The notes under the pieces: generated by a model
The model's input: only the letters and a program-made list of their open reading frames with translations
What the model was told of the DNA's origin: nothing
Database searches by the model: none
Shown: in pieces, positions 15,167-50,481 of the stretch
Position numbering within the stretch: position 1 is the stretch's first letter
Layout of the letters: the number at the start of each line of letters is the position of its first letter
Assembly (NCBI GenBank): GCA_041661625.1
Contig: JBAZUB010000003.1
Coordinates: forward strand, 69,004-133,003
Origin: Patescibacteria group bacterium
GTDB taxonomy: Bacteria > Patescibacteriota > Patescibacteriia > JAHIZJ01
Length of the DNA: 64,000 bases
Reading direction: 5' to 3'
Program-made: the position numbers and the translations under genes

Positions 15167-15245
15167 ACCGCGTCCACCCGCCTATCTTGACGGGATCCGG
15201 GAGTTAATTCTACACTTCAACACTAAACATCTGACACCTAAGTCA

Positions 15246-16799: not shown

Positions 16800-16868
16800 A
16801 TGATTTCTTAAACTTACATTGTCAACGATTTTGCCCAGCACCACTCACTTTGTTCGGATGCTGGGCGC

Positions 16869-35231: not shown

Positions 35232-35346
35232 GAGAGAAATATTCAATTGATAGATGATACAAAAACGTTGTCAGTATATCAGCTAACCGGATATATAGCC
35301 ACGTAAGGGTGTCATCCGCCTTCGGTAAAGGGTCGAATATTGACAT

Positions 35347-37110: not shown

Positions 37111-38487
37111 ATGATGAAACCATCTATGGAAAAGGAAAAGAAAGAACCCAGCAAGGCCAAATTCACCCAGCCGCGGCTGGTGCGGGGTATGAAAGATATC
37201 CTGCCCAGCGAACAGGCTTATTGGGATTGGATTCGCACGCGGGTGTTTGAATTGGCGCGGGATTACAGCTTTGGCCATATTACCACGCCGGTATTGGAAC
37301 AAGAGGCCCTGTTTGTCCGATCGATCGGCGAGGGCACTGACATCGTGGAAAAAGAAATGTTTGCTTTTTCCGACCAGGGCGAGGACAAGCTGGTCATGCG
37401 TCCCGAAGCCACCGCTTCGATTGTGCGCGCCTACAATGAACACGGCATGGTCAATCTGCCCCAGCCGGTTAAATTATTTTATTACGGCCCGATGTTCCGG
37501 CGGGAACGGCCCCAGGCCGGGCGATATCGGGAATTCAACCAATACGGTTTCGAAGTATTGGGCGAGGAACAGCCGATCGTAGACGCCCAATTGATGGTCA
37601 TGGCCTATAATTTCTTCAAAGAACTGGGCTTGCCGGTCAGTCTTCAGGTCAATAGCTTGGGCAATGCCGCCAGCCGCACCAAATACCGCAAGGAACTAAA
37701 CGATTACTTCAAGCCTCGTCGCAATCAGCTGTGCGATGATTGCAAAAAGCGTTTATTGACCAACCCACTGCGGGTGCTGGATTGCAAAGTGCCGACCTGC
37801 CAAGAGTTGGCCGTGGACGCACCGCAAATCGTGGATTATCTCGATGAGGTAGACAATAAGCACTTTACGCAAGTATTGGAATATCTCGAAGAGCTGGAAG
37901 TGCCGTATATCCTGAATCCGCGCATTATTCGCGGGCTGGATTATTATTCGCGCACCACGTTTGAAATCTGGCCGGAAAACGAAGCCGATGCCCGGCAAAG
38001 TACGCTGGGCGGCGGCGGCCGCTATGACGGTTTGGCTGAAATGCTGGGCGGACGGCCCACGCCGGCCTGTGGATTCGCGGTCGGGATCGAACGGGTGATA
38101 TTGAAACTGAAAGAAGCCGGTCTCACTACACCCAGTCTGCCGGCACCAGAAGTATACGTGGCTCAACTGGGCGACCAGTCCCGCCGCAAGGCCCTGTTGC
38201 TCTACGAGCGTCTGCGCCGCGAAGGTTTCCTGGTGGCGGAAAACTTTTCCAAGGAGGGGATCAAGGCGCAATTGGAATCGGCCAACCGCCAGGATATCAA
38301 GATCGCGTTGATCCTGGGCCAAAAGGAAAATATCGATGGCACGATCCTGATCCGCGACATGGAAAGCGGCACCCAGGAAGTGCTGAACTTCGAAAAGGTG
38401 ACCAATGAGCTCAAGCGCCGATTGCGCAAGAATGGCAATGGCGCCACGAACGGAAATGGCACCACCGAGAAGCCGCCAGTGGCTTAA
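37111..38487 (+). CDS. hisS: Histidyl-tRNA synthetase
   Basis: RGMKDILPSEQAYW, class-II motifs, anticodon-binding C-terminal domain. Confidence 0.9.
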   Translation: MMKPSMEKEKKEPSKAKFTQPRLVRGMKDILPSEQAYWDWIRTRVFELARDYSFGHITTPVLEQEALFVRSIGEGTDIVEKEMFAFSDQGEDKLVMRPEATASIVRAYNEHGMVNLPQPVKLFYYGPMFRRERPQAGRYREFNQYGFEVLGEEQPIVDAQLMVMAYNFFKELGLPVSLQVNSLGNAASRTKYRKELNDYFKPRRNQLCDDCKKRLLTNPLRVLDCKVPTCQELAVDAPQIVDYLDEVDNKHFTQVLEYLEELEVPYILNPRIIRGLDYYSRTTFEIWPENEADARQSTLGGGGRYDGLAEMLGGRPTPACGFAVGIERVILKLKEAGLTTPSLPAPEVYVAQLGDQSRRKALLLYERLRREGFLVAENFSKEGIKAQLESANRQDIKIALILGQKENIDGTILIRDMESGTQEVLNFEKVTNELKRRLRKNGNGATNGNGTTEKPPVA

Positions 38488-38580
38488 AGCTCTACACTCG
38501 ATCTCTATAAAATGCGATAATACCTGGCTTAATCGGGGTATTTCGCATATACTCTAGTTAAGTGAAATAAATCCTCTCTT

Positions 38581-39252
38581 ATGAACGGTGTTTGTATGAT
38601 TTTTTCAGCGGTCATTCTTTCGATCATTTATATCGGCTACTATCTTTTTGCTACTGGAATACCCGAAGCTGCTATCTCTAGTAGTGAAATATTAGGTTTC
38701 GTTTATGCTATAGCAATATCTATTATTGCTGCTGGTATTTTTTATCTATTCCAAGTTTATATACCAGAAAAAAAACGAAAGGACATTATAAGGGGTAATT
38801 TTAAATTGAATTACACACACTTTAAGGAAGACAGCATTTCAATCTTTTTATCTGCTCTAGGCCATAGCCACGACGTGCAATTACTAAAGAAATTGTCAGG
38901 GCTGGAAGAATTCAAAAACTATTTCAAAGAGAACCATAAAGAAGGGCGGGACAGGTGGAACGGCGTACTCAATGGCTTAAATGAATCCTTACTCAAAGAC
39001 CTTCTGGTTCAATTTGAAATATTAACTCAAGAAATTGATTTTTACCTCAGTAATATTTCATTGCACGACGAAGAAGTGTTTTCCTTCTTAAAGAGATTGA
39101 AAATTACGACTCAAACCCTAAAAAATACCAGCCTTAATTACGATGAAGTTAAGAGGCTTTCTGGATTTTTGTGGGAGCTATTTTCAGGTTGGAGTTTTAT
39201 TTCAGGGTATCGAAAGAATGACATATTTGAAGAAATGCTCGATAGGGTATAA
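38581..39252 (+). CDS. Hypothetical membrane-anchored protein (223 aa), very AT-rich
   Basis: N-terminal TM helices. No motif. Confidence 0.5.
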   Translation: MNGVCMIFSAVILSIIYIGYYLFATGIPEAAISSSEILGFVYAIAISIIAAGIFYLFQVYIPEKKRKDIIRGNFKLNYTHFKEDSISIFLSALGHSHDVQLLKKLSGLEEFKNYFKENHKEGRDRWNGVLNGLNESLLKDLLVQFEILTQEIDFYLSNISLHDEEVFSFLKRLKITTQTLKNTSLNYDEVKRLSGFLWELFSGWSFISGYRKNDIFEEMLDRV

Positions 39253-39319
39253 TTGTGTAGGATTTACTTCACTTAACACGGGCTAGCCGGTTCGCTTACC
39301 AAATAATTAACCAAAGAAT

Positions 39320-39511
39320 ATGATTACTGCACTCGGTATTGCAACAGTCGTTCTACTAATAATTATTGCCTATTTGTTACTAAGCATCAAAGGAACGCTT
39401 GAGGGTTTTTACGAAAGGGTATGGAATCATCTTTACTACGGAAAACAAAAGAGTCCGAGTGTTCTTGATGCTCTTGATAAGGTGATTAAGGACAAAGAGG
39501 CAAAGGGTTAA
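39320..39511 (+). CDS. Small TM protein (63 aa)
   Basis: ORF with one hydrophobic helix. Confidence 0.4.
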   Translation: MITALGIATVVLLIIIAYLLLSIKGTLEGFYERVWNHLYYGKQKSPSVLDALDKVIKDKEAKG

Positions 39512-39619
39512 AAATCTCCGCTCACCCAAATTGCTCCTTCATTCCGGCGGTGTGCTCCGCACAATTGTACCGCCTCCATTCCGTCGCAACTTCGGCTAGC
39601 CCGAAACGTTATGTGACAT
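39512..39619 (+). repeat. attC-like element 1 (long form). Its 3' end reads CCGAAACGTTATGTGACAT; no matching 5' box.
   Basis: Shares a central module (CTCACCCAAAT...CCGCACAATTGTACCGCCTCCATTCC...CTTCGGCT) with elements at 41077 and 43833. Confidence 0.45.
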
Positions 39620-39678
39620 ACTGCCCAATCTCAACAATTAATAATTTATCTACCTTATAACAATTATTTTAATCAAAC

Positions 39679-40035
39679 ATGGCGCATGAAACAGGTTCGG
39701 AACATATCGTTAATTTAGAGAGGTTTAGAAGTGCTCTAGCGACGAAAGCTGAAGAATATGCTGAAGCATCCTATACTACTTTTAACCTGAGCACAGATCT
39801 TAAAGATGTGGCTCATAAACAGGAACTATCAGCGGGGCTTCTTCAAGAGCTTTTAACTACTTGTGCGGTAGAACTTCAACAATCTCCTGACCCAGATGAA
39901 ACGATGATAATAATTAAAGAAGCTCTCGTTGATTACCAGCATGAAAATGGTACCTTGCTATTCTCTGACAGTGGTAAAGCAAAATTCTACCACGATTTAG
40001 TGATAGCAATTGCACGGCTGAGTAACCGGGCCTAG
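39679..40035 (+). CDS. Hypothetical protein (118 aa)
   Basis: ORF. Confidence 0.45.
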   Translation: MAHETGSEHIVNLERFRSALATKAEEYAEASYTTFNLSTDLKDVAHKQELSAGLLQELLTTCAVELQQSPDPDETMIIIKEALVDYQHENGTLLFSDSGKAKFYHDLVIAIARLSNRA

Positions 40036-40052
40036 ATATTGGGCAGTACATC

Positions 40053-40105
40053 ACATAACAGCGTGTATTCGATATTTTTACATCGCATACACGCAAACGT
40101 TGTAC
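40053..40105 (+). repeat. attC-like element 2: ACATAAC-AGCGTGTATTCG...CATACACGC-AAAC-GTTGTAC
   Basis: 5' box and 3' box, with inverted L segments. Confidence 0.5.
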
Positions 40106-40129
40106 GCCATAACAAATTATTGCAAGTTT

Positions 40130-40423
40130 ATGTTCTATACCTTGATATATAAAATATTTAAACTAGTCTCTAAAGAAAAACCTGTTCCAGCTATGATTCA
40201 AGGAGGTAAGATCATAGACTCAAAAATTGAAGACAATCGTGTAGATGGAGGGACCTTGCTGAATGTAAAGGAACTGCAAAATACTTCAGTTAAAAGAAAC
40301 TGGGTGAATCTTCCGTCACCGAGAAAAATATCTTGGTTTTGGAAAGCCCTCATAGATCTTGCTATCTTAATTATTGGGGGTTTTATTCTCTACAAAACTG
40401 GCTGGAATGGATCACAGCAATAA
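40130..40423 (+). CDS. Hypothetical small protein with C-terminal TM helix
   Basis: ATG at 40130 preferred over the TTG at 40100, which lies inside the preceding repeat. Confidence 0.4.
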   Translation: MFYTLIYKIFKLVSKEKPVPAMIQGGKIIDSKIEDNRVDGGTLLNVKELQNTSVKRNWVNLPSPRKISWFWKALIDLAILIIGGFILYKTGWNGSQQ

Positions 40424-40435
40424 TTTGTTACGGGC

Positions 40436-40488
40436 GTACAACACGGCGTATCTGGCTCAGCAAGGAACACCAATTTGAAACGTAGAAA
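40436..40488 (+). repeat. Degenerate attC-like element (GTACAAC-ACGGCGTAT ... GAAACGTAGAAAAT)
   Basis: 5' half conserved, 3' half decayed. Confidence 0.3.
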
Positions 40489-41076
40489 ATGGCTAACTTA
40501 CGACCAAACGAAAAAGAGAAAGCGTTTCTCAATCTGGCATATAATCGATTCTATGATATTTTTGAGGAAATCGAAAAAGATGATTTTTGGCAGAAAGAGG
40601 ATTGGCACCGATTCACCAAGATACGTGACGCCTTTCTAATATATACTGAACTACTTAACTATGAACCGATCCAATGGATAATTGAACAGATCAGAAAACA
40701 CAGGCCACCAATGGAGGCAGAAATCGGTAGCGATTTATTCAAGTTTGTTAGAAACATCATTTCACATTTCCCATTCTACGAACGTTGGAATGATGTGTGG
40801 GTTTCAAAAGACCTGGTGAATTGGTACAAAGATGGCCAATCTATAGACAAATTTATTGAAAAGTACAAAAATCATCCCGAGGTAAAATATCGAGTTTGGC
40901 AACCAAAAAAGAAGTTGATGACATATCTAAGTATCAATTTCCCTCAAAAATATCAAAGCGACACTAAGCTGTATTTACGAGAATTACTTACAGAAAAAGA
41001 AGGTATCATCTTTTCTATGACTTTCATGAAACAGATATTGGATATACAAGTTGAAGAAATGAAGGTTCCAAATTGA
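40489..41076 (+). CDS. Hypothetical protein (195 aa)
   Basis: ORF. Confidence 0.5.
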   Translation: MANLRPNEKEKAFLNLAYNRFYDIFEEIEKDDFWQKEDWHRFTKIRDAFLIYTELLNYEPIQWIIEQIRKHRPPMEAEIGSDLFKFVRNIISHFPFYERWNDVWVSKDLVNWYKDGQSIDKFIEKYKNHPEVKYRVWQPKKKLMTYLSINFPQKYQSDTKLYLRELLTEKEGIIFSMTFMKQILDIQVEEMKVPN

Positions 41077-41185
41077 TGTCCCCAGCTTCGCCCATATCTC
41101 TCGTTCGTTACGGGGTGCGCCCCGCGCAATTCTACCCCTTCACTCACTTCGAGACATCAGATACGCCGAAACGTTATACGGCATA
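41077..41185 (+). repeat. attC-like element 3 (long form) ending ATACGCCGAAAC-GTTATAC
   Basis: Central module with GGGGTGCGCCCCGCGCAATTCTACCCCTTCACTCACTTCGAG. Confidence 0.45.
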
Positions 41186-41278
41186 TTGCTCTTGACGAAA
41201 AGTACATCTAGCACTAAGATTGCGTATTAGTTATTTGACAGCAAAATACTCTCGGGGAGGCGAATCAAAGGAGGGCAG

Positions 41279-41434
41279 ATGTTTAATTATCTGATTGGAC
41301 TGATTCTGGGTGCAACAATCTCAATAGTCACAGTAAATATCAAGATCAGGCCGGGCGATGCGCTTTTGTGGGTACTCCTCTTACTCCTTGTCGTAAGTGT
41401 GATTCTCAACGCCGTTCGTATCAACAACAAGTGA
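41279..41434 (+). CDS. Tiny TM peptide (51 aa), below the track threshold
   Basis: ATG...TGA ORF encoding two hydrophobic helices. Followed by hairpin GGGGAAG-N7-CTTCCCC. Confidence 0.3.
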   Translation: MFNYLIGLILGATISIVTVNIKIRPGDALLWVLLLLLVVSVILNAVRINNK

Positions 41435-41537
41435 AAACATACGACGCTGGAGAGCTCCGATGCTTCCTCGGGGAAGGTCTAAACTTCCCCACTCCCCAAG
41501 AGTATTTTGTACCATTCAAAAAACATAGCAATACACC

Positions 41538-41599
41538 GTATAACACGGCATATACGTCACTCCACGTTGTTCCGCGCCGCATACGCCGAAACGTTGTAC
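41538..41599 (+). repeat. attC-like element 4: GTATAAC-ACGGCATATACG...GCATACGCCG-AAAC-GTTGTAC
   Basis: Boxes and inverted L segments. Confidence 0.5.
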
Positions 41600-41619
41600 G
41601 AAATAATTAATCTACAAAT

Positions 41620-41877
41620 ATGGAAAGAATTAATTACCCAAATCCTAGAGAAGCTGAATCAATGGGCATAGAAGCCGCTGCTTCATTCGAAGGTCTTTAC
41701 AGTATTTTACGCACAATGCTGGAAGTTGTAGGTACGGCAAAAACCTATACACCAGATGAACTGATTACAAAGATTGAAGATGTTCGACGAGGCGATAGAG
41801 ATATCAGCTTTATCACCCGAAGTCATGGTTTACGCAACACCGTAGAACGACTATTAACGAATGAGCAGACTGATTAA
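41620..41877 (+). CDS. Hypothetical protein (85 aa)
   Basis: ORF. Confidence 0.45.
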   Translation: MERINYPNPREAESMGIEAAASFEGLYSILRTMLEVVGTAKTYTPDELITKIEDVRRGDRDISFITRSHGLRNTVERLLTNEQTD

Positions 41878-41884
41878 TTACTTC

Positions 41885-41938
41885 GTACAACAGCGTGTAT
41901 ACGATATTGAGACATCGTATGACACGCAAACGTTATAC
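41885..41938 (+). repeat. attC-like element 5: GTACAAC-AGCGTGTATACG...ATGACACGC-AAAC-GTTATAC
   Basis: Boxes and inverted L segments. Confidence 0.5.
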
Positions 41939-41962
41939 GCCATTACCACATTAATTGAAACT

Positions 41963-42361
41963 ATGAACAGCCCGGAATCTCCAAGCCCAAACGAGACTGA
42001 AAAAATAAAGGAATATAGTAGCTTTGATGACATCCCTAACGATCCCAGATCAGAAGGCTTGCGGCCTGATCACGGTTATGCCGGGGGAGATCCAGATGAA
42101 ATTATTGTTGTTAGTGGGATAAAGTACAGAAAAATAGTTGCCATGCGCGCTTATAACCAGCGGGGGGATGGGGTCATTACTTTGAATCGGCCCTATACTG
42201 AAAAAGAATATTTTTCGCACAGCACTGTCGACGTGGGTCCGGGGCCGGGCTGGGATCAGCTCATGACTTATTTACGAGATCTTGGTATTTTTGATTTTGA
42301 CCCTGACCACCTTTCTGATTTGCCATTCTATCGACTCCAGCCGGTTGAACAAAAGGGATAA
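41963..42361 (+). CDS. Hypothetical protein (about 132 aa)
   Basis: Start moved to the ATG at 41963; the track start at 41861 would run through the preceding repeat. Confidence 0.45.
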   Translation: MNSPESPSPNETEKIKEYSSFDDIPNDPRSEGLRPDHGYAGGDPDEIIVVSGIKYRKIVAMRAYNQRGDGVITLNRPYTEKEYFSHSTVDVGPGPGWDQLMTYLRDLGIFDFDPDHLSDLPFYRLQPVEQKG

Positions 42362-42373
42362 TGTCGTAATGGC

Positions 42374-42436
42374 GTATAACAGCGTATATCCGCCATGCGC
42401 TACCGCGACACAGCAGATGATACGCAAACGTTATAT
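42374..42436 (+). repeat. attC-like element 6: GTATAAC-AGCGTATATCC...GATACGC-AAAC-GTTATAT
   Basis: Boxes and inverted L segments. Confidence 0.5.
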
Positions 42437-42590
42437 GACAGAACAACACATTCTTTCCGTCACTGCTATGACGGTTGGGAATCAGGGCAATTTTTCTTCT
42501 GCTGTTTGAAATCATAAATCTGCCTGGATCAAGTCGTGTGTGTCCGACCCGACCCAGGCAGCTAGACTGTGCAGACGATGATGTGAGAGC

Positions 42591-42944
42591 TCAGTCAGTG
42601 CTTTCGTTGTCCCATTCACGCTGGAAGTTCGTTCCATCAGGGAAGGCGATGTAGAGCGTGAACCGAGCCAGAAACTGGTGGGGAAAAAGCTTCGGCAACA
42701 GCTCGCCGAACCGGGCATACGCCTTGGTCGAGACGGACAACCCCCGAATTTCAGGAAGCGATCCTTCCGCGGCATCGTCGAATGTCCCGACAGGGAATCT
42801 GAGTGCCCAACGCGGAGGTCGCTCGCATTCGAAGTCAAAGCCTGCGGGGATGTTGACGTTCGGAATCGCAGGTTTCCTCTCTTCAATGACCGCATAAGCG
42901 CGGACTGTGGCCTGGGGTTTCTGCGCTTCGTTCACCTCAGCCAT
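42591..42944 (-). CDS. Hypothetical protein (117 aa), opposite orientation, GC-rich cassette
   Basis: ATG at 42944 with SD GGGAGGG. Confidence 0.45.
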   Translation of the reverse strand: MAEVNEAQKPQATVRAYAVIEERKPAIPNVNIPAGFDFECERPPRWALRFPVGTFDDAAEGSLPEIRGLSVSTKAYARFGELLPKLFPHQFLARFTLYIAFPDGTNFQREWDNESTD

Positions 42945-43194
42945 GATCCCTCCCTTTGCTGAATCAATGAGCCGACCGGCGTCTTCGCCGATCACTGCTT
43001 ATCAGTATTGGATACCACCATTACCCTGCTTAGCAGCTGTCTACCGACACAATCGACAGTTCAGCTGACAACCAAGAAAAAGATACTTAAATATAGGCTT
43101 TTCGATAATTTTGTCAAGTCAAAAACACGAAGAAAGATTGACCTGATTCCCAAAACCCTTCCCTTTGGTCAGGTAAAGAATGTATTGTTCCATC

Positions 43195-43284
43195 ATATAA
43201 CAGCGTATATCTGGCTTCGGTTCGCCTCCGGCGAGCCTCCGCCCATATCGCTAGCGCGACATCAGATATACGCAAACGTTAAAC
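43195..43284 (+). repeat. attC-like element 7: ATATAAC-AGCGTATATC...GATATACGC-AAAC-GTTAAAC
   Basis: Perfect GTTRRRY 3' box. The central part resembles element 3. Confidence 0.5.
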
Positions 43285-43408
43285 GAAATGTTGGTCAACA
43301 AATAATTTCAGATATTCGGATTGGGCTCTTTTCAATTTTTCTTATAAAGAAGTTCGCGCCACCCGAGGAATCTCGAATGGCGCGTTACAAGCAGGGCCGT
43401 AGGGCGCT

Positions 43409-43702
43409 CTACTGTTCGGACGAAAGGGCGTTGTACAGCTCTTGGGGCATATTGGGAGAGTTAATGCTTAACTCCCACTGATCCGCGGTCAGATGTAGTT
43501 CCGCGAGAACGCTCTCCCGCTCATTCTCCGGGATGGCCATATCTCGCAGCACATCGAGCAGGACAGAGATTGCCCCAAGGGAACTGAAGTAATTGTATGT
43601 GCGGCTTTCTGTGCCCCCCATACATTCGAGCTCTTCGATTCGCTCCTTCAGCCTCTGTAGGATCACCTCGTGTGCTGGTCGCTTTGCCTGCTGGTCGGTC
43701 AT
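43409..43702 (-). CDS. Hypothetical protein (97 aa), opposite orientation
   Basis: ATG at 43702 with SD AAAGGAGGG. Confidence 0.45.
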   Translation of the reverse strand: MTDQQAKRPAHEVILQRLKERIEELECMGGTESRTYNYFSSLGAISVLLDVLRDMAIPENERESVLAELHLTADQWELSINSPNMPQELYNALSSEQ

Positions 43703-43832
43703 ATCGCGCCCTCCTTTCTGGTTTTCGCGATATTCCTGTATATCACAAGTATACTTTCGCGTCAATACTTGTTCAATAAACAATTAAAAGAGCCCATAAA
43801 GAAAAGGTTGATTATTTGTTGCCCAAAACATC

Positions 43833-43994
43833 GTTTAACAGCGTATAGCAGGTTCAGGAAAATGCGCCTATAATAAGGGTATTAAGGTCGCGCATGTTCC
43901 TTCACCCAAATCGGCTTCCGTTCCAGCGGTGGCGCTACCGCGCAAGTATACCGCTTCCACTCCAGCCGACTTCTGCTATACGCAAACGTTATGT
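43833..43994 (+). repeat. attC-like element 8 (162 bp, long form): GTTTAAC-AGCGTATAGC...CTATACGC-AAAC-GTTATGT
   Basis: Perfect RYYYAAC 5' box. The central module is shared with elements 1 and 3. Confidence 0.45.
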
Positions 43995-44062
43995 GACATT
44001 TTTGTGGGCTGGTGTAGATAGCTACTTGCCCGAGGGATCCGCTCCTCTTTTTCACTCAATAT

Positions 44063-44701
44063 ATGGACAACAGCCAAAAAGCAGTTCAGGTATACAACAA
44101 AATAGCTGAGGACTATGCTAGTGTGTTTTCGAAACCTTCGGAATATCTTGATGAGTTTTTGGAACTCGTACCAACCAATGGAAAGATTCTCGATGTTGGC
44201 TGTGGCAACGGCGTTGATTGCCTTTATGTGAAACAAAAAGGCTTCAATGTTGTCGGTGTCGACATGTCAGCAAAGATGCTTGAAATCGCACGAAGCAAGG
44301 CTCCAGGTATTGAATATCGTCAGGGAGACATGAGGAACCTTCAGTTCCATGAAAACGAATTCGACGGTATTATTGCTTCTTGCTCTCTAATACATATCCC
44401 AAAACAGGACGTTCCAAAAACTCTACAGCGGTTTACGGGGTTTCTCAAACAAGATGGGGCGATCTACATTCAGTTACAGTCCGGTACGTCAGAGGAGGTC
44501 TTTGTCGATGAACCCTTCAAGCCTGACGAAAAGCTATTTGTGAACGTCATTTCGCCTGACGAAATCGAACTGCTTTTACGCAACGCTGGTTTTGAGATTG
44601 TACATAAACATGAAATACAATCACTGAAAAAAGAGGAGCTAGACTATACTCACTTAATCGTCATTGCCCGATATACCAGCGCCCACAAAAACATCACATA
44701 A
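44063..44701 (+). CDS. Class-I SAM-dependent methyltransferase (small-molecule/RNA type), paralog 1
   Basis: ILDVGCGNGVDCLYV motif I; acidic motif II VVGVDMS. About 75% identical to the 48914-49540 product. Confidence 0.75.
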   Translation: MDNSQKAVQVYNKIAEDYASVFSKPSEYLDEFLELVPTNGKILDVGCGNGVDCLYVKQKGFNVVGVDMSAKMLEIARSKAPGIEYRQGDMRNLQFHENEFDGIIASCSLIHIPKQDVPKTLQRFTGFLKQDGAIYIQLQSGTSEEVFVDEPFKPDEKLFVNVISPDEIELLLRNAGFEIVHKHEIQSLKKEELDYTHLIVIARYTSAHKNIT

Positions 44702-44748
44702 CAGCGTGTATACGATATTATCACATCGCATACACGCAAACGTTGTCC
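44696..44748 (+). repeat. attC-like element 9: ACATAAC-AGCGTGTATACG...CATACACGC-AAAC-GTTGTCC. The gene stop codon lies inside the 5' box.
   Basis: The TAA at 44699-44701 sits within ACATAAC. Confidence 0.5.
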
Positions 44749-44805
44749 GAAGATCAGCCTCCAGCGCAGTAGGATAAGCACGGGTGCTAAAATAGTTAGA
44801 AAAAG

Positions 44806-45585
44806 TTGTATAATACTATGCCAAACGTTGCACACAGAATAAGAAACAACCAGCGAGCATGGGATAGAGTAGCCGATCTTTTTCTGGAAGCTACCGCCCT
44901 ACCAGCGTGGGCTGTCTTTGGTGTTGGAAAAGATTTAGGGCTTATCCCAACAATTAAAGGGAAATCGTTCCTAGAAATAGGGTGTGGCAGCGGGCGATCA
45001 ATCGCATACCTAGCGCGCCATGGAGCAAAGAAAATTTACGCCATTGACGCATCACCCACACAAATACGCGAAGCCGCAAAATTCAATCACGTCGCACATC
45101 AGCGAGAAACCGTAAAATTGTTTACTGGTCCGATGGAAAAAAAGTACCCGATTCCACCAGTAGACATAGTTTTTTCAATTTACGGGCTGGGTTGGACACA
45201 AAGACCAGAAATTACTTTGAGACACATTTATCGCTACCTGAAGCCTGGGGGACGATTCATTTGGAGCTGGGACCACGCTCTCTTTTTCGATGTAGGTTAT
45301 GAAAAGGATAAATTCGTCGTTCAGCATTCGTATCACGATGAGCGTGTATTACACCGTAAAGATTGGAAAAGACCTGGAGTCAATATATTCATTACCTATC
45401 GCAAAACTGAAACATGGTTTCGGCTTTTGACCGAAGCAGGATTTAATATTATCGAATACCACGAGCCAAAGCCAAAAAACACCGATCGTGCTCATCGTGA
45501 TCCCAAAAAATATTACTCCCTCCAGAAGGCAAAACTCATACCCGCATCATTTATTTTTGTCTGTCAGAAACCAATAAAGTCTTGA
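44806..45585 (+). CDS. Class-I SAM-dependent methyltransferase (259 aa)
   Basis: FLEIGCGSGRSIAYLARHGAKKIYAIDAS. Confidence 0.7.
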   Translation: MYNTMPNVAHRIRNNQRAWDRVADLFLEATALPAWAVFGVGKDLGLIPTIKGKSFLEIGCGSGRSIAYLARHGAKKIYAIDASPTQIREAAKFNHVAHQRETVKLFTGPMEKKYPIPPVDIVFSIYGLGWTQRPEITLRHIYRYLKPGGRFIWSWDHALFFDVGYEKDKFVVQHSYHDERVLHRKDWKRPGVNIFITYRKTETWFRLLTEAGFNIIEYHEPKPKNTDRAHRDPKKYYSLQKAKLIPASFIFVCQKPIKS

Positions 45586-45677
45586 AACCGCTCTTATCTT
45601 TATTGGGTGGGAGGCAAATCATCGGACAACAGCACATGATATACTAACATAATCAGCCACTAATTTATTCATATTGT

Positions 45678-46139
45678 ATGAATAGCATCAAAAGCATTGA
45701 ATACCTGAAAGGCAAAAACGTTTCTTTTCGGGTCATCAAATTTGCCAAAATTCCTAAGACCGCCGCCGATGTTGAACGCATATACAACTGTCCCTTGAGA
45801 GAGGTTTTGAAAGCCCTACTATTCATTGGTAAAGACAAGCCCTTTCTCGTGGTTCTAGAGGGCGACAAACGATTAGACTACAAAAAACTGGGTCCGGTTG
45901 TTCAAGAGGAGAAAATGAGAATGGCTAGACTAGAGGAGGTATTGGAAATCACCGGTTATTCGGTCGGTAGCGTGTCGCCATTCTCACTAAAGCAAGACAT
46001 CCTAAAGATCATGGACAACAACGTATTCAAGAACAAAAAGATCAACATCGGTAGTGGTGATCCTTATGCAGGAATCGAAATGGAATCCGTGGAATTACGA
46101 AAGGCGTGGGATGGCAGATTTGCTGAAATCTCGGGATAA
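45678..46139 (+). CDS. YbaK/ProX-like aminoacyl-tRNA deacylase domain protein
   Basis: 153 aa. GSVSPF and INIGSGD segments. Confidence 0.5.
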   Translation: MNSIKSIEYLKGKNVSFRVIKFAKIPKTAADVERIYNCPLREVLKALLFIGKDKPFLVVLEGDKRLDYKKLGPVVQEEKMRMARLEEVLEITGYSVGSVSPFSLKQDILKIMDNNVFKNKKINIGSGDPYAGIEMESVELRKAWDGRFAEISG

Positions 46140-46182
46140 TTTAACAACGTAAAACACGGCGTATACGCCGAAATGTTATGTG
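46140..46182 (+). repeat. attC-like element 10 (short): ATTTAAC-AACG...CGGCGTATACGCCG...AAAT-GTTATGT
   Basis: Perfect RYYYAAC box. Palindromic core CGGCGTATACGCCG. Confidence 0.45.
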
Positions 46183-46223
46183 AAATATGCCAGGCTCAAA
46201 TTTAGTCATTATTGACAATATCA

Positions 46224-46547
46224 ATGGGAACATCATCGAGAAACGATCGTATCAAAGCGTTTATCCTGTGGTACATCGGCACTGGAGCGCTTGTTTACAT
46301 CGTTGAGATTGCTTTTCTGCATGAACGACAATGGTTAGGCACGGATGGAAATTTTTCCTTCCTACAGTTATTACTTCAAATTCTCAGCCGTGCGGTGGCT
46401 TGGCCGATGCAAGTTCTTTTTGGTATCAACGGACTTGGTTTCAGCGCGGAGGGATTGTACGGTTCCTGGTATCTCATTGGCATAACGATTGTTTCTCTTT
46501 TTATTGGGTGGTGGATAATTCACACAAAGACTAAAAAACCCGCTTAG
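46224..46547 (+). CDS. Small polytopic membrane protein
   Basis: ATG at 46224 preferred over the TTG at 46212. Three hydrophobic helices. Confidence 0.45.
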   Translation: MGTSSRNDRIKAFILWYIGTGALVYIVEIAFLHERQWLGTDGNFSFLQLLLQILSRAVAWPMQVLFGINGLGFSAEGLYGSWYLIGITIVSLFIGWWIIHTKTKKPA

Positions 46548-46701
46548 CATGATGTTTGGACGTTATACGAAAGGATGCCATGAAATTTAAAATATTCTTT
46601 GCGTGGTTTGACTTTTGGGTCGGTTTTTTCTGGGATGCAAAGAAGCGGATACTATATTTTTGTCCACTGCCTTGCGTCGTTTTTTCGATCGCGTTCCCAT
46701 C

Positions 46702-46766
46702 ATCTAACAGCGCCAATACGCCATCCCATTAATTGGGGGCGGGCGCAGGAAGCTCAAACGTTATAC
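46702..46766 (+). repeat. attC-like element 11: ATCTAAC-AGCGCCAATACGCC...AAAC-GTTATAC
   Basis: Perfect RYYYAAC box. Preceded by a 47-aa ORF (46569-46709). Confidence 0.5.
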
Positions 46767-46802
46767 GACATCGAATAGCATCATTAATTAGCGCATAGAC
46801 AA

Positions 46803-47453
46803 ATGAAAAGAACCCTGGAAAAAGAGATAATGGACGACAAAGAACAGGTTACCGCCTACGCCCGGGCTGATTTTTCTACGACAAATAATTTATTTATTGC
46901 CAAAGTATCCAGATATAACAGAAAAAATATATTGGACCTGGGCTGTGGCCCGGCTGATATTCCAATCATTCTGGCCGGAAACAATCCCAATATCAGAATC
47001 ACGGCGGTTGACGCGTCCAGTGAGATGTTGGACTATGCCAGAAAACAAATAAAGTCGCGCAAACTGGATAAAAACATTACTTTGGTTAAGGGTAAAATTC
47101 CGGGGTTAGCCAAATCACTAAACAACCGACGATACGATTTTATTATTTCCAAAGATTTACTGCATCACTTGCCGCAACCGGCACCGTTTTGGGAGGAAAT
47201 CAAAAAGCTATCCAACAAAGGAACGGCGGTAATGGTCATGGACTTAATCAGACCCGATAATAAGGAACAGGCGAGAAAAATGGTTGAATCGGGTGCCAAG
47301 AATGAAGCGAAGATATTAAAAACTGATTTCTATAATTCCTTATTAGCCGCTTTTACCATTAAAGAAATTAAACAGCAGTTAAAAACGGCCAAATTGAATC
47401 TTAAGGTGGAAAATATAGGCAGCCGGCATTTTTTGGTCAAGGGTAAAATGTAA
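46803..47453 (+). CDS. Class-I SAM-dependent methyltransferase (216 aa)
   Basis: ILDLGCGPADIPIILAG motif I, AVDASSEML. Confidence 0.7.
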   Translation: MKRTLEKEIMDDKEQVTAYARADFSTTNNLFIAKVSRYNRKNILDLGCGPADIPIILAGNNPNIRITAVDASSEMLDYARKQIKSRKLDKNITLVKGKIPGLAKSLNNRRYDFIISKDLLHHLPQPAPFWEEIKKLSNKGTAVMVMDLIRPDNKEQARKMVESGAKNEAKILKTDFYNSLLAAFTIKEIKQQLKTAKLNLKVENIGSRHFLVKGKM

Positions 47454-47469
47454 GTATCGCCGACATTTC

Positions 47470-47500
47470 ACGTTATACAACAGACGTGGGCGTAAACGAG
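47470..47500 (+). repeat. Degenerate attC-like remnant (CACGTTATACAACAGACGTGGGCGTAAACGAG)
   Basis: Fused 3'-type and 5'-type boxes. Confidence 0.3.
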
Positions 47501-47533: not shown

Positions 47534-47950
47534 ATGGCAGACTTCAATAAAATCGGCGTACTAATACTAAACGAGGACGCGACGAAATTCCTGGTTTGCG
47601 AAGTGCATCCACGGGTTCTGCCACCAACATATCTCATGCCGGGCGGTGTTTTCCACGAGGATTCGATCGAAGAGTGCATCGCCAATGAAATAAAGGAAGA
47701 GCTGGACAGCGCAGTCGATACTTCCACAATAGAGTTTATTGGCGAGTATATCGATGTGGCCGCGACCAATCCCGATAAAACGGTGGCTATTCAACTCTAC
47801 AAAGGTGCGTTATTAAATGAGCCAAAGCCATCTTCCGAGGTTAAGCAGCTTCATTGGATCGGCAAAGAAGGGGAGAACCTTGAAGTTGTATCGCCGATTA
47901 TCCGGAATAAGATTATTCCCGATCTCATCAAACGAGGTATATTGAAATAA
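47534..47950 (+). CDS. NUDIX hydrolase
   Basis: GGVFHEDSIEECIANEIKEELD Nudix box. Confidence 0.7.
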   Translation: MADFNKIGVLILNEDATKFLVCEVHPRVLPPTYLMPGGVFHEDSIEECIANEIKEELDSAVDTSTIEFIGEYIDVAATNPDKTVAIQLYKGALLNEPKPSSEVKQLHWIGKEGENLEVVSPIIRNKIIPDLIKRGILK

Positions 47951-48021
47951 AATTCATCGTCCAAAAGTAAGCATTCCAAAATTTTTGATATAATACCATT
48001 CTACACATTACACACTACCAA

Positions 48022-48390
48022 ATGGAAAACGACGCAATGAAAAAACACACTTCCCCATTCATCGTAATAGCTGTTGTTATTCTTGCGGTGGGATTGGCAT
48101 TTTTCGCTTTTCAATTATTATTTATCCAACCGGACAGTAAAAAAGTCGCCTGTAGCGAACTTCCTTCGGCTGAACAAGTCCAAAATATTCTTACCGAGCA
48201 TACTGATATTATTCAGGAGCTGGGACGTCTCGGTCCCGAAAACACCATTCGATTTGATGCCGACGCGACTAGGTGTCCAGGTAAGGCCGACATTTTTATC
48301 ATTTACGGCACAGAGAAGCAACGTCATCAGATAAAAGATAGAATCGGCGATAATTTCTTCGGAATACCTTACCGAATGGCAAATATGTAA
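48022..48390 (+). CDS. Small secreted hypothetical protein
   Basis: N-terminal signal/TM IVIAVVILAVGLAFFAF. Confidence 0.4.
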   Translation: MENDAMKKHTSPFIVIAVVILAVGLAFFAFQLLFIQPDSKKVACSELPSAEQVQNILTEHTDIIQELGRLGPENTIRFDADATRCPGKADIFIIYGTEKQRHQIKDRIGDNFFGIPYRMANM

Positions 48391-48413
48391 TAAAACCTTG
48401 AGAGAATAGCAAC

Positions 48414-48872
48414 ATGTCCAAACTAGATCTCCAAAACGGCATTATCAAGAATTCGCGTGGACTAGTGTACAAAGTCGAAAATGGCCAACGGTTTTTTCTG
48501 TTGACGCAAGAGCTCGATGGCATCTACACGCTTCCGGGAGGCTGTAAGGATCTCGACGATGTCGACTCGCTGTCCGCCATGCAGCGTGAAATAAAGGAAG
48601 AATTAAACTTGAATACAACAGATTACGAAATACGTGGCTCGGATATCCAAAAGACATATCAGAATGTATATCCCGATCCCACCTCGGAAAGGTTCGGCAA
48701 GGACACAATCATTTGTTTGTTTCTTATTCAGTGTATTGATTCACAGTCAATCAAGTTATCAGATGATATAAAAAGTTTCCAGTGGTTTAATGAAATAGAT
48801 GCTTTAAAGTCGTTAACCACAAACCACATGAAGGAAATGTTTCGGCTCGGTATGGAGTTATTGCAGAAATAA
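48414..48872 (+). CDS. NUDIX hydrolase (second copy)
   Basis: LPGGCKDLDDVDSLSAMQREIKEELNL. Confidence 0.7.
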   Translation: MSKLDLQNGIIKNSRGLVYKVENGQRFFLLTQELDGIYTLPGGCKDLDDVDSLSAMQREIKEELNLNTTDYEIRGSDIQKTYQNVYPDPTSERFGKDTIICLFLIQCIDSQSIKLSDDIKSFQWFNEIDALKSLTTNHMKEMFRLGMELLQK

Positions 48873-48913
48873 TTTTACCCAAAGGTATCGTTTCATTGAT
48901 TCGATCAATAAAT

Positions 48914-49540
48914 ATGGACAATAGTATAAAAGCGGTTCATGTATATGACCGGATAGCTAACGCGTACGCCGACGTGTTTTCGGAACCTTCCGAAAATATC
49001 GATGAGTTTTTGGAACTTTTACCAACCAAAAGCAAGATTTTGGACGTCGGCTGCGGTAACGGAGTTGATTGTATTTACGTAAAAAACAAAGGTTATGACG
49101 TTGTCGGCGTCGATATGTCAGAAAAAATGCTTGATATCGCTAGAAGCAAATATCCTGAGATCGATTTTCGTCTGGGTGACATGAGAAAACTTGAGTTCGA
49201 CAAGAATGAATTCGATGGAATTATTGCAGCTTGTTCGCTGATTCACATACCTAAGCGGGACATTCCAAGTACATTGAATCAGTTTGCAGGATTTCTTAAA
49301 CATGGCGGCGCAGTATACATTCTGTTACAATCTGGAAAATCTGAAGAATTGTTCGTAAATGAACCTTTCAAACCCGATGAAAAGTTGTTTGTGAATGTCA
49401 TTTCGTCGGACGAAATCGAACGGTTGCTCCAAGACGCTGGTTTCGAGATAGTACATAAACACGAACGTAAATCTTTAATAGAGAAGGAGCTCGACTTTAT
49501 TCATTTGATCGTGATTGCTCGATATATAGGCGTCCATTAA
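48914..49540 (+). CDS. Class-I SAM-dependent methyltransferase, paralog 2 of 44063-44701
   Basis: MDNSIKAVHVY...ILDVGCGNGVDCIYV. Collinear with paralog 1 along its whole length. Confidence 0.75.
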   Translation: MDNSIKAVHVYDRIANAYADVFSEPSENIDEFLELLPTKSKILDVGCGNGVDCIYVKNKGYDVVGVDMSEKMLDIARSKYPEIDFRLGDMRKLEFDKNEFDGIIAACSLIHIPKRDIPSTLNQFAGFLKHGGAVYILLQSGKSEELFVNEPFKPDEKLFVNVISSDEIERLLQDAGFEIVHKHERKSLIEKELDFIHLIVIARYIGVH

Positions 49541-49543
49541 CAT

Positions 49544-50134
49544 ATGAACCGTCCATTTGATTGTATTACCGACTTCATTTTTATTGAAAATCAACCTGCC
49601 AAGGCTGATATTATTCTAATTCCGGGTGGTTTACGGCCCCAGCTGATGGATAAAGCCGTGGAACTCTATCGGCAAGGTTTTGCCCCATACATACTTCCAT
49701 CAGGAGGGGCTGGCCCAAAACTTAGTCGAGAAATAGAGGCCGGAACCGCACATTGGAAAAGTGAGTGGGAGTTTTTACAAAATATTGCCCTGCAAAAAGG
49801 AGTTCCGGAAAAAATGGTGTTGAAGGAAGACAAAGCCTTGAACACCTACGACAATGCTAGACTGTCGTGGCGAGTCGTTCAGCAACAGAATATCGAGGTT
49901 AATAAAGCCATCCTCGTGTGCAAGGCATTTCACGCTCGACGCGCACTACTGACTTATCAAGCCGCTTTTTCTTCAAAAATCGAATATATTATTTGTCCGA
50001 TTATTGACGATCGTGATGTTCGACGGGACAATTGGTTCTTGGATGAAAAAAAGATTGAGCTAGTGATGGGTGAAATGGAAAAAATCGGGAAATATTTTGT
50101 GAAGCGTATTACCCAGTTAAATAATAACGCCTAA
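49544..50134 (+). CDS. DUF218 (YdcF/ElyC/SanA-like) domain protein
   Basis: ADIILIPGG...ILPSGGAG...NTYDNARLS. Confidence 0.5.
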   Translation: MNRPFDCITDFIFIENQPAKADIILIPGGLRPQLMDKAVELYRQGFAPYILPSGGAGPKLSREIEAGTAHWKSEWEFLQNIALQKGVPEKMVLKEDKALNTYDNARLSWRVVQQQNIEVNKAILVCKAFHARRALLTYQAAFSSKIEYIICPIIDDRDVRRDNWFLDEKKIELVMGEMEKIGKYFVKRITQLNNNA

Positions 50135-50145
50135 ACAATAAACCC

Positions 50146-50481
50146 ATGGATTGCCTCTTCTGTAAAATCATTGAAAAAAGTATTCCCGGTGAGATTGTCT
50201 ACGAGGACGATCAAGTGATCGCGTTCAAAGATATCCATCCCAAAGCGGATATCCACGTGCTGGTAATCCCGAAGCGGCACATTCAGTCGCTGGCTGGTTT
50301 GAGTGAGGCCGACGCGGCTTTGATCGGGCACTTAATTGTGGTAACGAGCCGGTTGGCGAAGGAATTGGGGATTGAATCGGGTTTCAAAGTAGCGGTAAAC
50401 AGCGGGCTTAAGGCTGGCCAGGAGGTGGACCATCTCCACATCCATTTGATGGGCGGGCGCTTCCATAGTCACTTGGCCTAA
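50146..50481 (+). CDS. HIT-family (histidine triad) hydrolase
   Basis: HVLVIPKRH and HLHIHLMGG. Confidence 0.85.
   Translation: MDCLFCKIIEKSIPGEIVYEDDQVIAFKDIHPKADIHVLVIPKRHIQSLAGLSEADAALIGHLIVVTSRLAKELGIESGFKVAVNSGLKAGQEVDHLHIHLMGGRFHSHLA

Follow-up and report, generated by a model that had tools for sequence, protein, structure and literature searches.

A probable integron-type gene-cassette array headed by an attI-like site in a Patescibacteria chromosome

Sedentary chromosomal integrons such as the Vibrio cholerae superintegron, with its V. cholerae repeats (VCR), are chromosomal arrays of mostly promoterless, co-oriented gene cassettes of unknown function. Each cassette ends at its 3' side in an attC site, homogeneous in sequence within its family, and an attI site stands at the head of the array. 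Here we describe a locus with this architecture at positions 38,506–47,486 of a 64,000-nt stretch of DNA, called the window below, from a genome labelled "Patescibacteria group bacterium" at NCBI (proteins MFA6198568-610, locus tags WC734_). According to our analysis, the locus is very probably a chromosomal array of gene cassettes of the integron type, belonging to a Patescibacteria (candidate phyla radiation, CPR) bacterium, with the steps of its mechanism proposed by analogy. Like the sedentary integrons, it has sites that are chimeric at G/TT (the slash marks the point of exchange), hairpins biased towards the bottom strand, reversed cassettes with their own promoter and, in its relatives, a divergently oriented integrase. 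It differs from them in its CPR host, in the absence of the I2 helix from the cognate recombinase of its relatives, and in attC sites some of which hold genes in their loop. In addition, its R and L stems meet at a 3-nt bulge on one side only, most of its R boxes read RNAYAAC and pair over up to 13 bp, and its attC sites show sequence conservation from phylum to phylum (mean column identity 70%).

A cluster of attC sites lacking integron-integrases (CALIN) comprises at least two attC sites on one strand with no integrase nearby (Cury et al. 2016). The window array has this layout; unlike a CALIN it retains its attI, and related arrays adjoin a recombinase that the definition PF00589 + intI_Cterm would not count. 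IntegronFinder uses this pair of profiles to recognize IntI, and in the reference survey recombinases near attC without the extra domain were judged not to be integron integrases (Cury 2016, PMC4889954). Because the recombinase of the relatives lacks the IntI-specific domain, the elements described here are "integron-like" and not canonical integrons by the current definition. The archaeal integrons (Ghaly et al. 2022, PMC9668308) are similar in that they come from uncultured lineages, are metagenomic finds and consist mostly of arrays without detectable IntI (6 IntI for 539 attCs in 75 genomes), whereas archaeal IntIs carry the additional domain that the CPR recombinases lack. As a speculation, XerA-like recombinases without I2 might serve archaeal arrays too. 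IntegronFinder 2.0 lists no CPR (PMC9024848), and no description of CPR or Patescibacteria integrons was found in the searchable full-text literature, which excludes subscription-only papers, in line with a preliminary description of this stretch that had called integrons essentially undescribed in such genomes.

Xer-based systems offer further comparisons. The XerCD/dif system, as used by integrative mobile elements exploiting Xer (IMEX) such as CTX-phi, combines a Xer-type recombinase, a double-stranded target with two inverted arms of ~11 bp and an incoming hairpin mimic with an unpaired centre, all of which have counterparts here. Unlike IMEX and CTX-phi, our locus holds small promoterless cassettes in long tandem arrays, not phages, and its site does not lie at a GC-skew terminus. 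The pdif modules of Acinetobacter plasmids are double-stranded XerC/XerD sites in inverted orientation, whereas the units here are hairpins in direct orientation, one per cassette. The "Cand" simple tyrosine recombinases (Smyshlyaev et al. 2021, PMC8138268) are also short, Xer-related and from candidate phyla; they were placed with the Xer-related recombinases of other phyla, and no attI/attC link was described for them. The recombinase family presented below probably falls in or near this group.

Repeats, cassettes and hairpins of the array

At 38.5 kb, the GC content of the window falls from 47–52% to 37–44%, an AT-rich shift already pointed out in the preliminary description, with the exception of 42–44 kb (47–51%), where two GC-richer minus-strand cassettes lie. 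Repeats were initially detected by reading the sequence and by scanning for AAACGTT, chance-level matches to which are scattered elsewhere. Strict consensus searches (AAACGTTRRRY, RAAACGTTRNNY) recovered 1–3 sites only, because the boxes, being GTTRYRY-like, depart from the strict consensus, and were replaced by relaxed scans and by a covariance model trained on 21 simple attC-like sites, of which 5 lie in the window and 16 in other genomes. The window contains 11 well-formed attC-like sites, all on the + strand between 39,271 and 46,766, with the layout NNNNAAC-N-L''...L'-AAA(C/T)-GTTNNNN, in which the outer NNNNAAC and GTTNNNN boxes are R'' and R'. Three attC remnants on the same strand (45,624; 46,562; 47,472) complete the array, which ends at 47,486.

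The covariance model was run on both strands of all 64 kb with its filters off. Every match with E<1e-4 (the E-values of this model are rough) falls inside 40,047–46,772 and none elsewhere, and + strand scores lie far above those of the - strand. Three sites outside the training set were recovered, at 43,189–43,290 (54.9 bits), 46,143–46,187 (40.4 bits) and 46,696–46,772 (27.6 bits), and weak partial matches correspond to the 3' halves of long sites. The repeats are real, numerous and restricted to one locus of the 64 kb. The claim of at least 11 repeats with a common layout, far beyond chance by the covariance model, is thereby borne out, and within the window they are confined to one array and not spread through intergenic regions. 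Other particulars had to be corrected. Sites measure 33–162 bp, apart from the two split ones of 344 and 744 bp, instead of ~45–160 bp. The boxes, given before as RYYYAAC/GTTRRRY, are RYWYAAC/GTTRWRY in the window, where strict AAACGTTRRRY fits one site only, and R-B-A/C-Y-AAC across 80 short sites, a set pre-selected for AAC/GTT that cannot measure the invariance of these bases; in the 21 aligned sites AAC/GTT is invariant. An Rfam scan of the array gave nothing at E<=1 save two chance-level matches, and Rfam at gathering thresholds detected two tRNAs only in the whole window.

The 5' and 3' boxes had been thought to covary as exact reverse complements within each element. Our results showed a different rule: R'' and R' of a single site are exactly complementary in 0/9 cases, while in 10/10 consecutive cassettes (38,557–45,624) the R'' exactly reverse-complements the R' found one site earlier, which is the 5' end of the same cassette. 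Ten matches were reached in 1 of 200,000 permutations (p ~5e-6), and the complementarity of the cassette ends extends over 10–13 of 13 nt. Among all short sites of the other loci gathered for comparison (from other genomes and metagenomes, labelled L002, L005, L010, L024 and so on; ~0.8 Mb of sequence was gathered in all), 18/38 neighbour pairs match vs 7/80 within one site. This cassette rule is the signature of exchange at G/TT, each attC being a chimera whose last six bases come from the next cassette, and the crossover point falls after the L'-AAAC segment and before the four variable bases of R'. Complementarity across the cassette is more diagnostic than the within-element pattern proposed earlier.

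The same rule bears on the possibility that the repeats are inert intergenic palindromes, REP (repetitive extragenic palindrome)-like or terminator-like, that were spread or duplicated locally while the units between them are immobile. This would suit the several hairpins that score terminator-like on the minus strand, as well as the identity of the array in all assemblies of the window strain. It is at odds with the cassette rule and with the confinement of the repeats to one locus of 64 kb, and it sits poorly with a site family that flanks unrelated genes in many phyla, with the ends of cassette 7, which recur in another metagenome-assembled genome (MAG) at a different locus, and with the attI at the array head. 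We consider such inert repeats extremely improbable, and read the locus as an array of discrete cassettes composed of the following features.

38,506–38,569, + strand: attI-like, dif-like insertion site (detailed in the next section)
38,581–39,252, + strand: cassette 1 gene, 223 aa; no Pfam or PADLOC match
39,271–39,614, + strand: attC 1, split "type-G" complex site of 344 bp; R'' ACTTAAC, L'' CGGGCTAGCCG, embedded gene, P3 module, L' CGGCTAGCCCG, AAAC, R' GTTATGT
39,320–39,511, + strand: gene in the attC 1 loop, 63-aa predicted membrane peptide; in L042 also called by another pipeline
39,679–40,035, + strand: cassette 2 gene, 118 aa; no family match
40,053–40,105, + strand: attC 2, simple, 53 bp, ACATAAC ... 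GTTGTAC; 79.4 bits, with predicted fold
40,193–40,423, + strand: cassette 3 outer gene, 76 aa; alternative starts at 40,100 and 40,131
40,436–41,179, + strand: attC 3, split complex site of 744 bp; R'' GTACAAC, L'' CGGCGTATCTG, embedded gene, P3 module, L' CAGATACGCCG, AAAC, R' GTTATAC
40,489–41,076, + strand: gene in the attC 3 loop, 195 aa, conserved, function unknown; 689 homologues, no Pfam or PADLOC match
41,279–41,434, + strand: cassette 4 gene, 51-aa membrane peptide; GGAGG Shine-Dalgarno
41,538–41,599, + strand: attC 4, 62 bp, GTATAAC ... GTTGTAC; 64.3 bits
41,620–41,877, + strand: cassette 5 gene, 85 aa
41,885–41,938, + strand: attC 5, 54 bp, GTACAAC ... GTTATAC; 75.1 bits, bottom-strand fold -15.2 kcal/mol, z -4.7
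41,963–42,361, + strand: cassette 6 gene, 132 aa; an alternative 166-aa call from 41,861 would read through attC 5
42,374–42,436, + strand: attC 6, 63 bp, GTATAAC ... GTTATAT; 61.5 bits, with predicted fold
42,520–43,117, - strand: cassette 7 cargo, reversed; 117-aa gene 42,591–42,944, strong Shine-Dalgarno, promoter-like site 43,117–43,090, terminator 42,561–42,520
43,195–43,284, + strand: attC 7, 90 bp, ATATAAC ... GTTAAAC; 54.9 bits, outside the training set
43,355–43,776, - strand: cassette 8 cargo, reversed; 97-aa gene 43,409–43,702, strong Shine-Dalgarno, promoter-like site 43,776–43,748, terminator 43,384–43,355
43,833–43,994, + strand: attC 8, complex, 162 bp, GTTTAAC ... GTTATGT; three-way junction fold
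44,063–44,701, + strand: cassette 9 gene, class-I SAM methyltransferase, 212 aa; stop codon inside R''
44,696–44,748, + strand: attC 9, 53 bp, ACATAAC ... GTTGTCC; 78.5 bits
44,806–45,585, + strand: cassette 10 gene, class-I methyltransferase, 259 aa
45,624–45,650, + strand: attC 10 remnant, 5' half only (R'' GGACAAC and degenerate L''); R'' still matches the cassette 5' end GTTGTCC
45,678–46,139, + strand: cassette 11 gene, YbaK/aminoacyl-tRNA editing domain protein, 153 aa
46,149–46,181, + strand: attC 11, minimal 33-bp hairpin, GTAAAAC-A-CGGCGTATACGCCG-AAAT-GTTATGT; 40.4 bits, outside the training set
46,212–46,547, + strand: cassette 12 gene, 111-aa membrane protein
46,536–46,574, + strand: attC remnant, 3' half only (GTTATAC at 46,562–46,568); 9.9 bits
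46,580–46,732, + strand: cassette 13 small open reading frame (ORF), ~50 aa, membrane-like; overlaps the next R''
46,702–46,766, + strand: attC 13, 65 bp, degenerate, ATCTAAC ... GTTATAC; 27.6 bits, outside the training set
46,803–47,453, + strand: cassette 14 gene, class-I methyltransferase, 216 aa
47,469–47,486, + strand: last recognisable remnant, CACGTTATACAACAGACG
47,534–50,481, + strand: candidate former cassettes

By family, the cargo comprises four class-I methyltransferases, two NUDIX proteins and one YbaK/tRNA_edit protein. This is the list given in the preliminary description, except that both NUDIX genes and the fourth methyltransferase gene lie beyond the last attC. For 9–10 cassette proteins, neither Pfam nor PADLOC gave a match. 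As had been noted, the stop codon of the cassette 9 gene (44,699–44,701) lies inside R'' ACATAAC (44,696–44,702), and the two minus-strand cassettes have strong Shine-Dalgarno sites, to which we add a promoter-like site and a terminator of their own. The ends of cassette 7 are common to locus L002 of a Patescibacteria MAG (75–89% nt identity).

The sites fold into hairpins whose stems are maintained by compensatory changes. Across the 21 aligned sites, pairing in the L stem amounts to 91.6%, with compensatory changes in 9/13 pairs; the covariation score (0.297 vs 0.119 after shuffling) was reached by 0/500 shuffles, and pairing was lost when the partners were slid by 1–3 columns. When the sites were folded with DNA energy parameters, the bottom strand gave the more stable fold in 18/21 of them (mean difference 2.4 kcal/mol; Wilcoxon p = 1.4e-4, folding energies only), mainly because an A.C mismatch on the top strand (11/21 sites) is G.T on the bottom strand. 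The folded form consists of the R stem, a one-sided 3-nt bulge (TTT, bottom strand), the L stem and a variable loop. Loops range from 4 nt (46,149–46,181) to three-way junctions and to gene-holding inserts of ~300 and ~700 nt. The bottom strand of attC 8 (43,833–43,994) is predicted to form a three-way junction of the R/L stem, a P2 hairpin and the P3 module (-39.4 kcal/mol, z -5.9). The bottom-strand hairpin with R and L stems expected from the preliminary description is therefore present, whereas the two extrahelical bases and the unpaired central spacer are absent, as discussed below. Taken with the discrete cassettes, the chimeric G/TT ends and the single array, these covarying hairpins sustain its integron-like reading of the locus.

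The attI-like site and the recombinases of related loci

The array had been described as having no visible attI. We found an attI-like site at 38,506–38,569 (+), 70 nt after the hisS stop codon (38,487). It is made of an upstream motif ATGCGATAATAC (38,512–38,523), which sits 30 nt upstream of a left arm TTCGCATA (38,542–38,549), followed by a 7-nt spacer and GTTAAGT (38,557–38,563). Cassette 1 starts at T38558, and GTTAAGT is the exact complement of the cassette 1 R'' ACTTAAC. The pattern TTCGYATA-N7-GTT has a single match in the window vs 0.10 expected. A consensus promoter scan showed no + strand promoter in 38,300–38,600, and TATAAAAT is present at 38,506–38,513.

In other genomes, this site accompanies a recombinase gene. 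Both attI motifs were found, with identical spacing, 78–142 nt upstream of the recombinase start codon in 11/11 loci examined by eye, and a slightly stricter pattern is present in 53/70 metagenome loci. Identical attI left halves diverge right after GTT (L032 vs L033; L071, L073 and L074), which is what insertion of different cassettes at attI yields; likewise, different cassettes stand behind an identical recombinase and attI in different samples (L032–L035). The consensus AATTCGTATA-GAAACGAG-TTATACGAAAT consists of two inverted arms of ~10 nt around a 7–8-nt centre, and the window version is TTCGCATAT-ACTCTAG-TTAAGTGAAAT. Judged from its sequence, this architecture is that of a Xer/dif-type core site. 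The E. coli dif site is GGTGCGCATAA-TGTATA-TTATGTTAAAT, and we take the attI to resemble it, as a lead only. The inner part of L' (TCGCATA) resembles the attI left arm and, with the bulge flipped out, would stand 6 helical steps from GTT vs 7 in attI. The L' hairpin may thus mimic the two-arm attI site, a possibility with which the TCGCATA likeness fits.

As already reported in the preliminary description, the window holds no intI: phmmer searches with IntI1 and the L010 recombinase against ORFs >=60 aa detected no tyrosine recombinase at E<10. The IntI1 query served for the first screen only, and the domain absence described below rests on PDB 2A3V and NCBIfam. A 319-aa minus-strand ORF (34,287–35,246) was considered as intI for its size and orientation and rejected, as it is an LPG-synthase membrane protein. 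Since there is no tyrosine recombinase in the 64 kb, the label CALIN fits, here for a CALIN that keeps its attI.

Related loci were collected mainly in two ways. A scan of GTDB species genomes with one pattern, AACAGCGTRTA-N(10-40)-AYACGCAAACGTTR, returned 22 loci with related attC sites, all with several sites on one strand each. Most are Patescibacteria MAGs (Magasanik-, Uhr-, Kerfeld-, Gracili- and Saccharibacteria), while others are labelled Zixibacteria, Atribacteria and Gammaproteobacteria, where binning errors are possible. In 3 of these loci, a tyrosine recombinase is divergent from the array. The Kerfeldbacteria locus L010 represents an entire element, made up of a recombinase gene, an attI and no fewer than 4 cassettes. 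Three of these follow the cassette rule without exception, and the fourth deviates at one base. The second set consists of 80 metagenome loci fetched solely by recombinase similarity (58–70% identity) and then scanned with the attC covariance model; since the recombinase alone was used to fetch them, the association test is free of circularity. Among 55 attC matches (E<1e-3), 54 are upstream on the opposite strand, 1 is upstream on the same strand and 0 are in 240 kb downstream. At least one attC match is present in 26 of the 44 loci having >=1 kb of upstream sequence. Loci reached through protein look-ups agreed with this arrangement.

The related recombinases are 264–319 aa long, mostly 270–274, and retain the catalytic R, K, HxxR, H and Y. 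The L010 enzyme aligns end to end with Pyrococcus abyssi XerA (4A8E; 153 bits). With VchIntIA (2A3V; 151 bits), the alignment falls into two blocks, query 4–181 to 3–182 and 202–273 to 246–317; about 43 residues of the IntI-specific (I2) domain are therefore absent. In agreement, TIGR02249 (integron integrase) matches in two stretches with 219 bits, below its cutoff of 265, while the NCBIfam models NF040815 (XerA_Arch) and XerC/XerD give 213–220 and 177–189 bits. Every recombinase adjoining the attC/attI family lacks the domain, whether its locus came from the DNA-pattern scan (3 loci), from protein look-ups (8) or from the metagenome scan (80). The family counts more than 7,800 proteins at E<=1e-30, named XerD or "site-specific tyrosine recombinase/integron integrase", several of them from Patescibacteria. 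Members from different CPR classes share 58–81% identity, and MAGs of Zixibacteria and Gammaproteobacteria encode such recombinases as well.

These data allow two other readings of the recombinase to be weighed. According to the first, the array is an ordinary integron whose full-domain IntI is encoded at another place in the genome or has lately been lost by deletion, and the short recombinases of the relatives are bystanders. CALINs are indeed common, most of them without a nearby intI pseudogene (Cury 2016, PMC4889954), and some sites of related loci carry fully canonical GCCTAAC/GTTAGGC boxes. Bystanders, however, would hardly lack the domain in all 3 + 8 + 80 loci, nor keep a fixed geometry, divergent with attI 78–142 nt from the start codon and attC matches distributed 54:1:0; and none of the fetched loci showed an IntI that carries the I2 domain. 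We hold this reading to be very unlikely.

The second reading is that the ~270-aa recombinase is the host's ordinary dimer resolvase, of the Xer-related "Cand" type, that the "attI" is its dif, and that the cassettes are IMEX-like elements piling up there, as CTX-phi and TLC do in Vibrio. In the single-recombinase systems XerS and XerH, dif adjoins the xer gene. The end-to-end alignment with archaeal XerA at the same score as IntI, the NF040815 scores and the attI with its two ~10-nt inverted arms around a 7–8-nt centre would all agree with this, as would the classification of candidate-phyla tyrosine recombinases as Xer-related (Smyshlyaev 2021, PMC8138268). Yet the window shows no GC-skew sign change at 38.5 kb, and its attI, which has neither an adjacent recombinase gene nor a GC-skew switch, is therefore not a terminus. 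GC-skew in the other integrase loci is confounded by the strand bias of cassette genes, so that the window result alone is usable. Moreover, if the recombinase stands with its own attI elsewhere in the genome, as in 53/70 loci, there would be two sites, unlike a unique dif, and 58–81% identity across CPR classes and Zixibacteria and Gammaproteobacteria MAGs fits horizontal spread better than a vertical housekeeping gene. A plain dimer-resolution system thus appears unlikely as the explanation of the locus, and it is in any case compatible with an integron-type array, as the enzyme could do both jobs.

Cassettes of the related arrays include defence genes. A single 5.2-kb cassette of L024 (JGI contig Ga0502760_0000004, 3,931–9,098), bounded by R' GTTAGTC and R'' GACTAAC, holds two D12-class methyltransferase genes, an AlwI-type endonuclease gene and a Shedu-like (SduA_C) gene, and L023 contains cassettes with HEPN_AbiU2 and NUDIX genes. 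In related arrays, therefore, defence genes move as cassettes. In a tblastx comparison between the window array and the other loci, no shared proteins >=50 aa were detected.

Genes within attC loops and the surroundings of the array

Two sites of the window are split by a gene. The halves of attC 1, R''-A-CGGGCTAGCCG and CGGCTAGCCCG-AAAC-R', are exact 11-nt complements, unique in the window, and stand 300 nt apart around the 63-aa ORF. In the predicted bottom-strand fold of this 344-bp site, the R/L stem stays closed around the insert; attC 8 shows the same architecture without a gene. In attC 3, CGGCGTATCTG and CAGATACGCCG flank the 195-aa ORF (40,489–41,076), whose product has 689 homologues that are 60–76% identical and come from several phyla; this is therefore a real gene. 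Members of its family occur in Chryseobacterium, Bacillus/Cytobacillus, cyanobacteria and Bacteroidota, and their conservation is unusually high for a hypothetical protein.

The type-G shell, defined as AACACGGGCTAGCC ... GGCTAGCCCGAAACGTT, is not peculiar to the window. All 5 complete sites with a CGGGCTAGCCG L box in the ~0.8 Mb gathered hold different ORFs in one conserved shell: 63 aa in the window, 197 aa in L005, 110 and 86 aa in the two sites of L024, and 104 aa in L044. Inverted repeats of 10–20 bp, specific to the cargo, tightly bracket the embedded ORF. An origin of the split sites by deletion fusing two cassettes was rejected, because two precise deletions would be needed each time and the inverted repeats hug the ORF. 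The long "sites" proposed by the parser in L016 (possibly also in L063, L087 and L031-1299) probably arise from pairing across two adjacent attCs whose L boxes are alike, and were not counted. No report of genes within attC loops was found in the searchable literature, and we know of no mechanism that puts genes there.

The 3' arm of the complex attCs contains a module of ~80 nt, P3, at 39,513–39,592, 41,080–41,157 and 43,892–43,975, and nhmmer located it in 17 non-redundant places (3 in the window and 14 others). The outer stem of its hairpin covaries (GGCGGT/ACCGCC, AGCGGT/ACCGCT, GGGGT/ACCCC, GCCAGTGGT/ACCACTGGC and others), and the module also has an inner GCGC-TCC-GCGC hairpin and a conserved unpaired AATTATA-like stretch. 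RNAalifold recovered 5 core pairs only, because MAFFT misaligned the variable-length stems. The 3' part of P3 (GCGCAATTATAC) is similar to the attI upstream motif (TGCAATAATA / CGCATAATAAC), and this likeness makes it a candidate extra recombinase-binding site.

The array is inserted among core genes, with topA, dprA, mfd, der, lytR and hisS on its proximal side, and HIT, yqeY, a giant T4SS-pilin protein, ftsA, ftsZ and htrA on its distal side. Pfam identified hisS, a signal peptidase, a glyoxalase and an LPG-synthase transmembrane protein among the flanking genes. Just beyond the last remnant, 47,534–50,481 (+) is AT-rich, densely packed and without attC; it encodes a NUDIX protein, a hypothetical protein, a second NUDIX protein, a methyltransferase, a DUF218 protein and HIT. 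The methyltransferase (48,896–49,540) has 73% aa identity to that of cassette 9 (44,063–44,701). The run from 47.5 to 50.5 kb probably represents old cassettes that lost their attC. Further on, 51,323–55,837 encodes a 1,504-aa protein with T4SS_pilin, Big_5 and TIG domains. At the other end of the window, positions 1–16,800 form an island of ~60% GC (vs 47–52% for the rest of the window) that ends at a tRNA-Leu(caa) (16,713–16,799, -); a large serine recombinase gene (15,246–16,760, +) runs into this tRNA with its 3' end. Two DNA methyltransferase-like genes (3,125–4,294 and 4,279–5,898, -) lie in this island, which is probably an integrated element or a prophage at tRNA-Leu.

Proposed mechanism, objections and significance

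We propose that ~14 cassettes were inserted one by one at a double-stranded, dif-like attI. Each unit would run from TTNNNN through its gene or genes to a hairpin R''(NNNNAAC)-N-L''-loop-L'-AAAC-G. When single-stranded, the bottom strand would fold so that the R and L duplexes form two recombinase-binding arms around the one-sided 3-nt bulge, and a tyrosine recombinase would cut it between A and C of AAC (G/TT on top). One strand would then be exchanged with attI (insertion) or with another attC (excision), and replication would resolve the product. XerCD acts in this way on the CTX-phi hairpin, where one strand exchange is followed by resolution through replication, and this is the source of our analogy. 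The enzyme would be a Xer-like protein of ~270 aa acting in trans from elsewhere in the genome, or since lost. Most cassettes are promoterless and co-oriented with hisS, and would presumably be expressed by read-through from it; the two reversed cassettes carry their own promoter-like site and terminator. Intact proximal sites and decayed distal ones would fit insertion at attI over time. What the sequences themselves show is the anatomy, the crossover position, the folding bias and, in relatives, the linkage of recombinase, attI and attC; from IntI and from XerCD on CTX-phi we infer catalysis, single-strand exchange, action in trans and read-through expression.

Several observations weigh against an integron-type array operating in this manner. 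No recombinase lies within the 64 kb searched, and the array may be a fossil. At its distal end, the last four sites are degenerate or halved. RYYYAAC/GTTRRRY is met by 18/80 R'' and 16/80 R' boxes only. A canonical attC has an unpaired central spacer and two extrahelical bases (PMC7439510), whereas the sites described here lack both, the L stem holding at most one bulged or wobble position, and their spacer geometry is 1 nt vs 4 nt. The I2 helix is regarded as the innovation that enabled single-stranded recombination (Escudero et al., PMC7790495) and single-stranded attC sites are held not to recombine without it (PMC7790495; Messier & Roy 2001 as cited in PMC9668308), so that a recombinase without I2 might work differently, for example on double-stranded sites. 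Finally, no cassette shuffling was seen in the window strain: contrary to the differences between strains that had been expected, the array is 100% identical in the other assemblies found. One feature of these assemblies speaks in favour of the array: contigs of three of them end at 39,602/39,604 and at 42,426, that is, 4–6 nt from the G/TT crossovers at 39,608 and 42,430, and two MEGAHIT contigs overlap by exactly k = 141 at 39,604–39,744. These ends suggest assembly-graph branches at cassette junctions, which does not prove rearrangement.

With these points included, an integron-type array is still the reading that we favour for the window, as stated at the outset. On the wider question, we lean, by a modest margin over even chances, towards the view that CPR and some other uncultured lineages carry a widespread undescribed class of integrons, of which the window is one array detached from its recombinase. 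This class would combine a Xer-like recombinase without the I2 helix, a dif-like attI, sequence-conserved attC hairpins that mimic attI, and a subclass with genes in the loop. It could be a transitional state between Xer and IntI or an independent solution for single-stranded cassette capture.

In ~90 independent loci, a recombinase without the I2 domain accompanies an attC family that shows all the sequence hallmarks of cassette exchange. If the system is active, this domain would not be required for cassette capture, and integron surveys based on intI_Cterm would miss a whole class. The dif-like attI and the XerA-like enzyme make the Xer origin of integrons directly testable, and the gene-in-hairpin attCs provide a new handle on the unsolved origin of cassettes and may bear on how cassettes are made. 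For the CPR, with their tiny genomes and dependence on hosts, an active system would mean a gene-capture platform of their own, whose cassettes in relatives include restriction-modification, Shedu-like and HEPN_AbiU2 genes.

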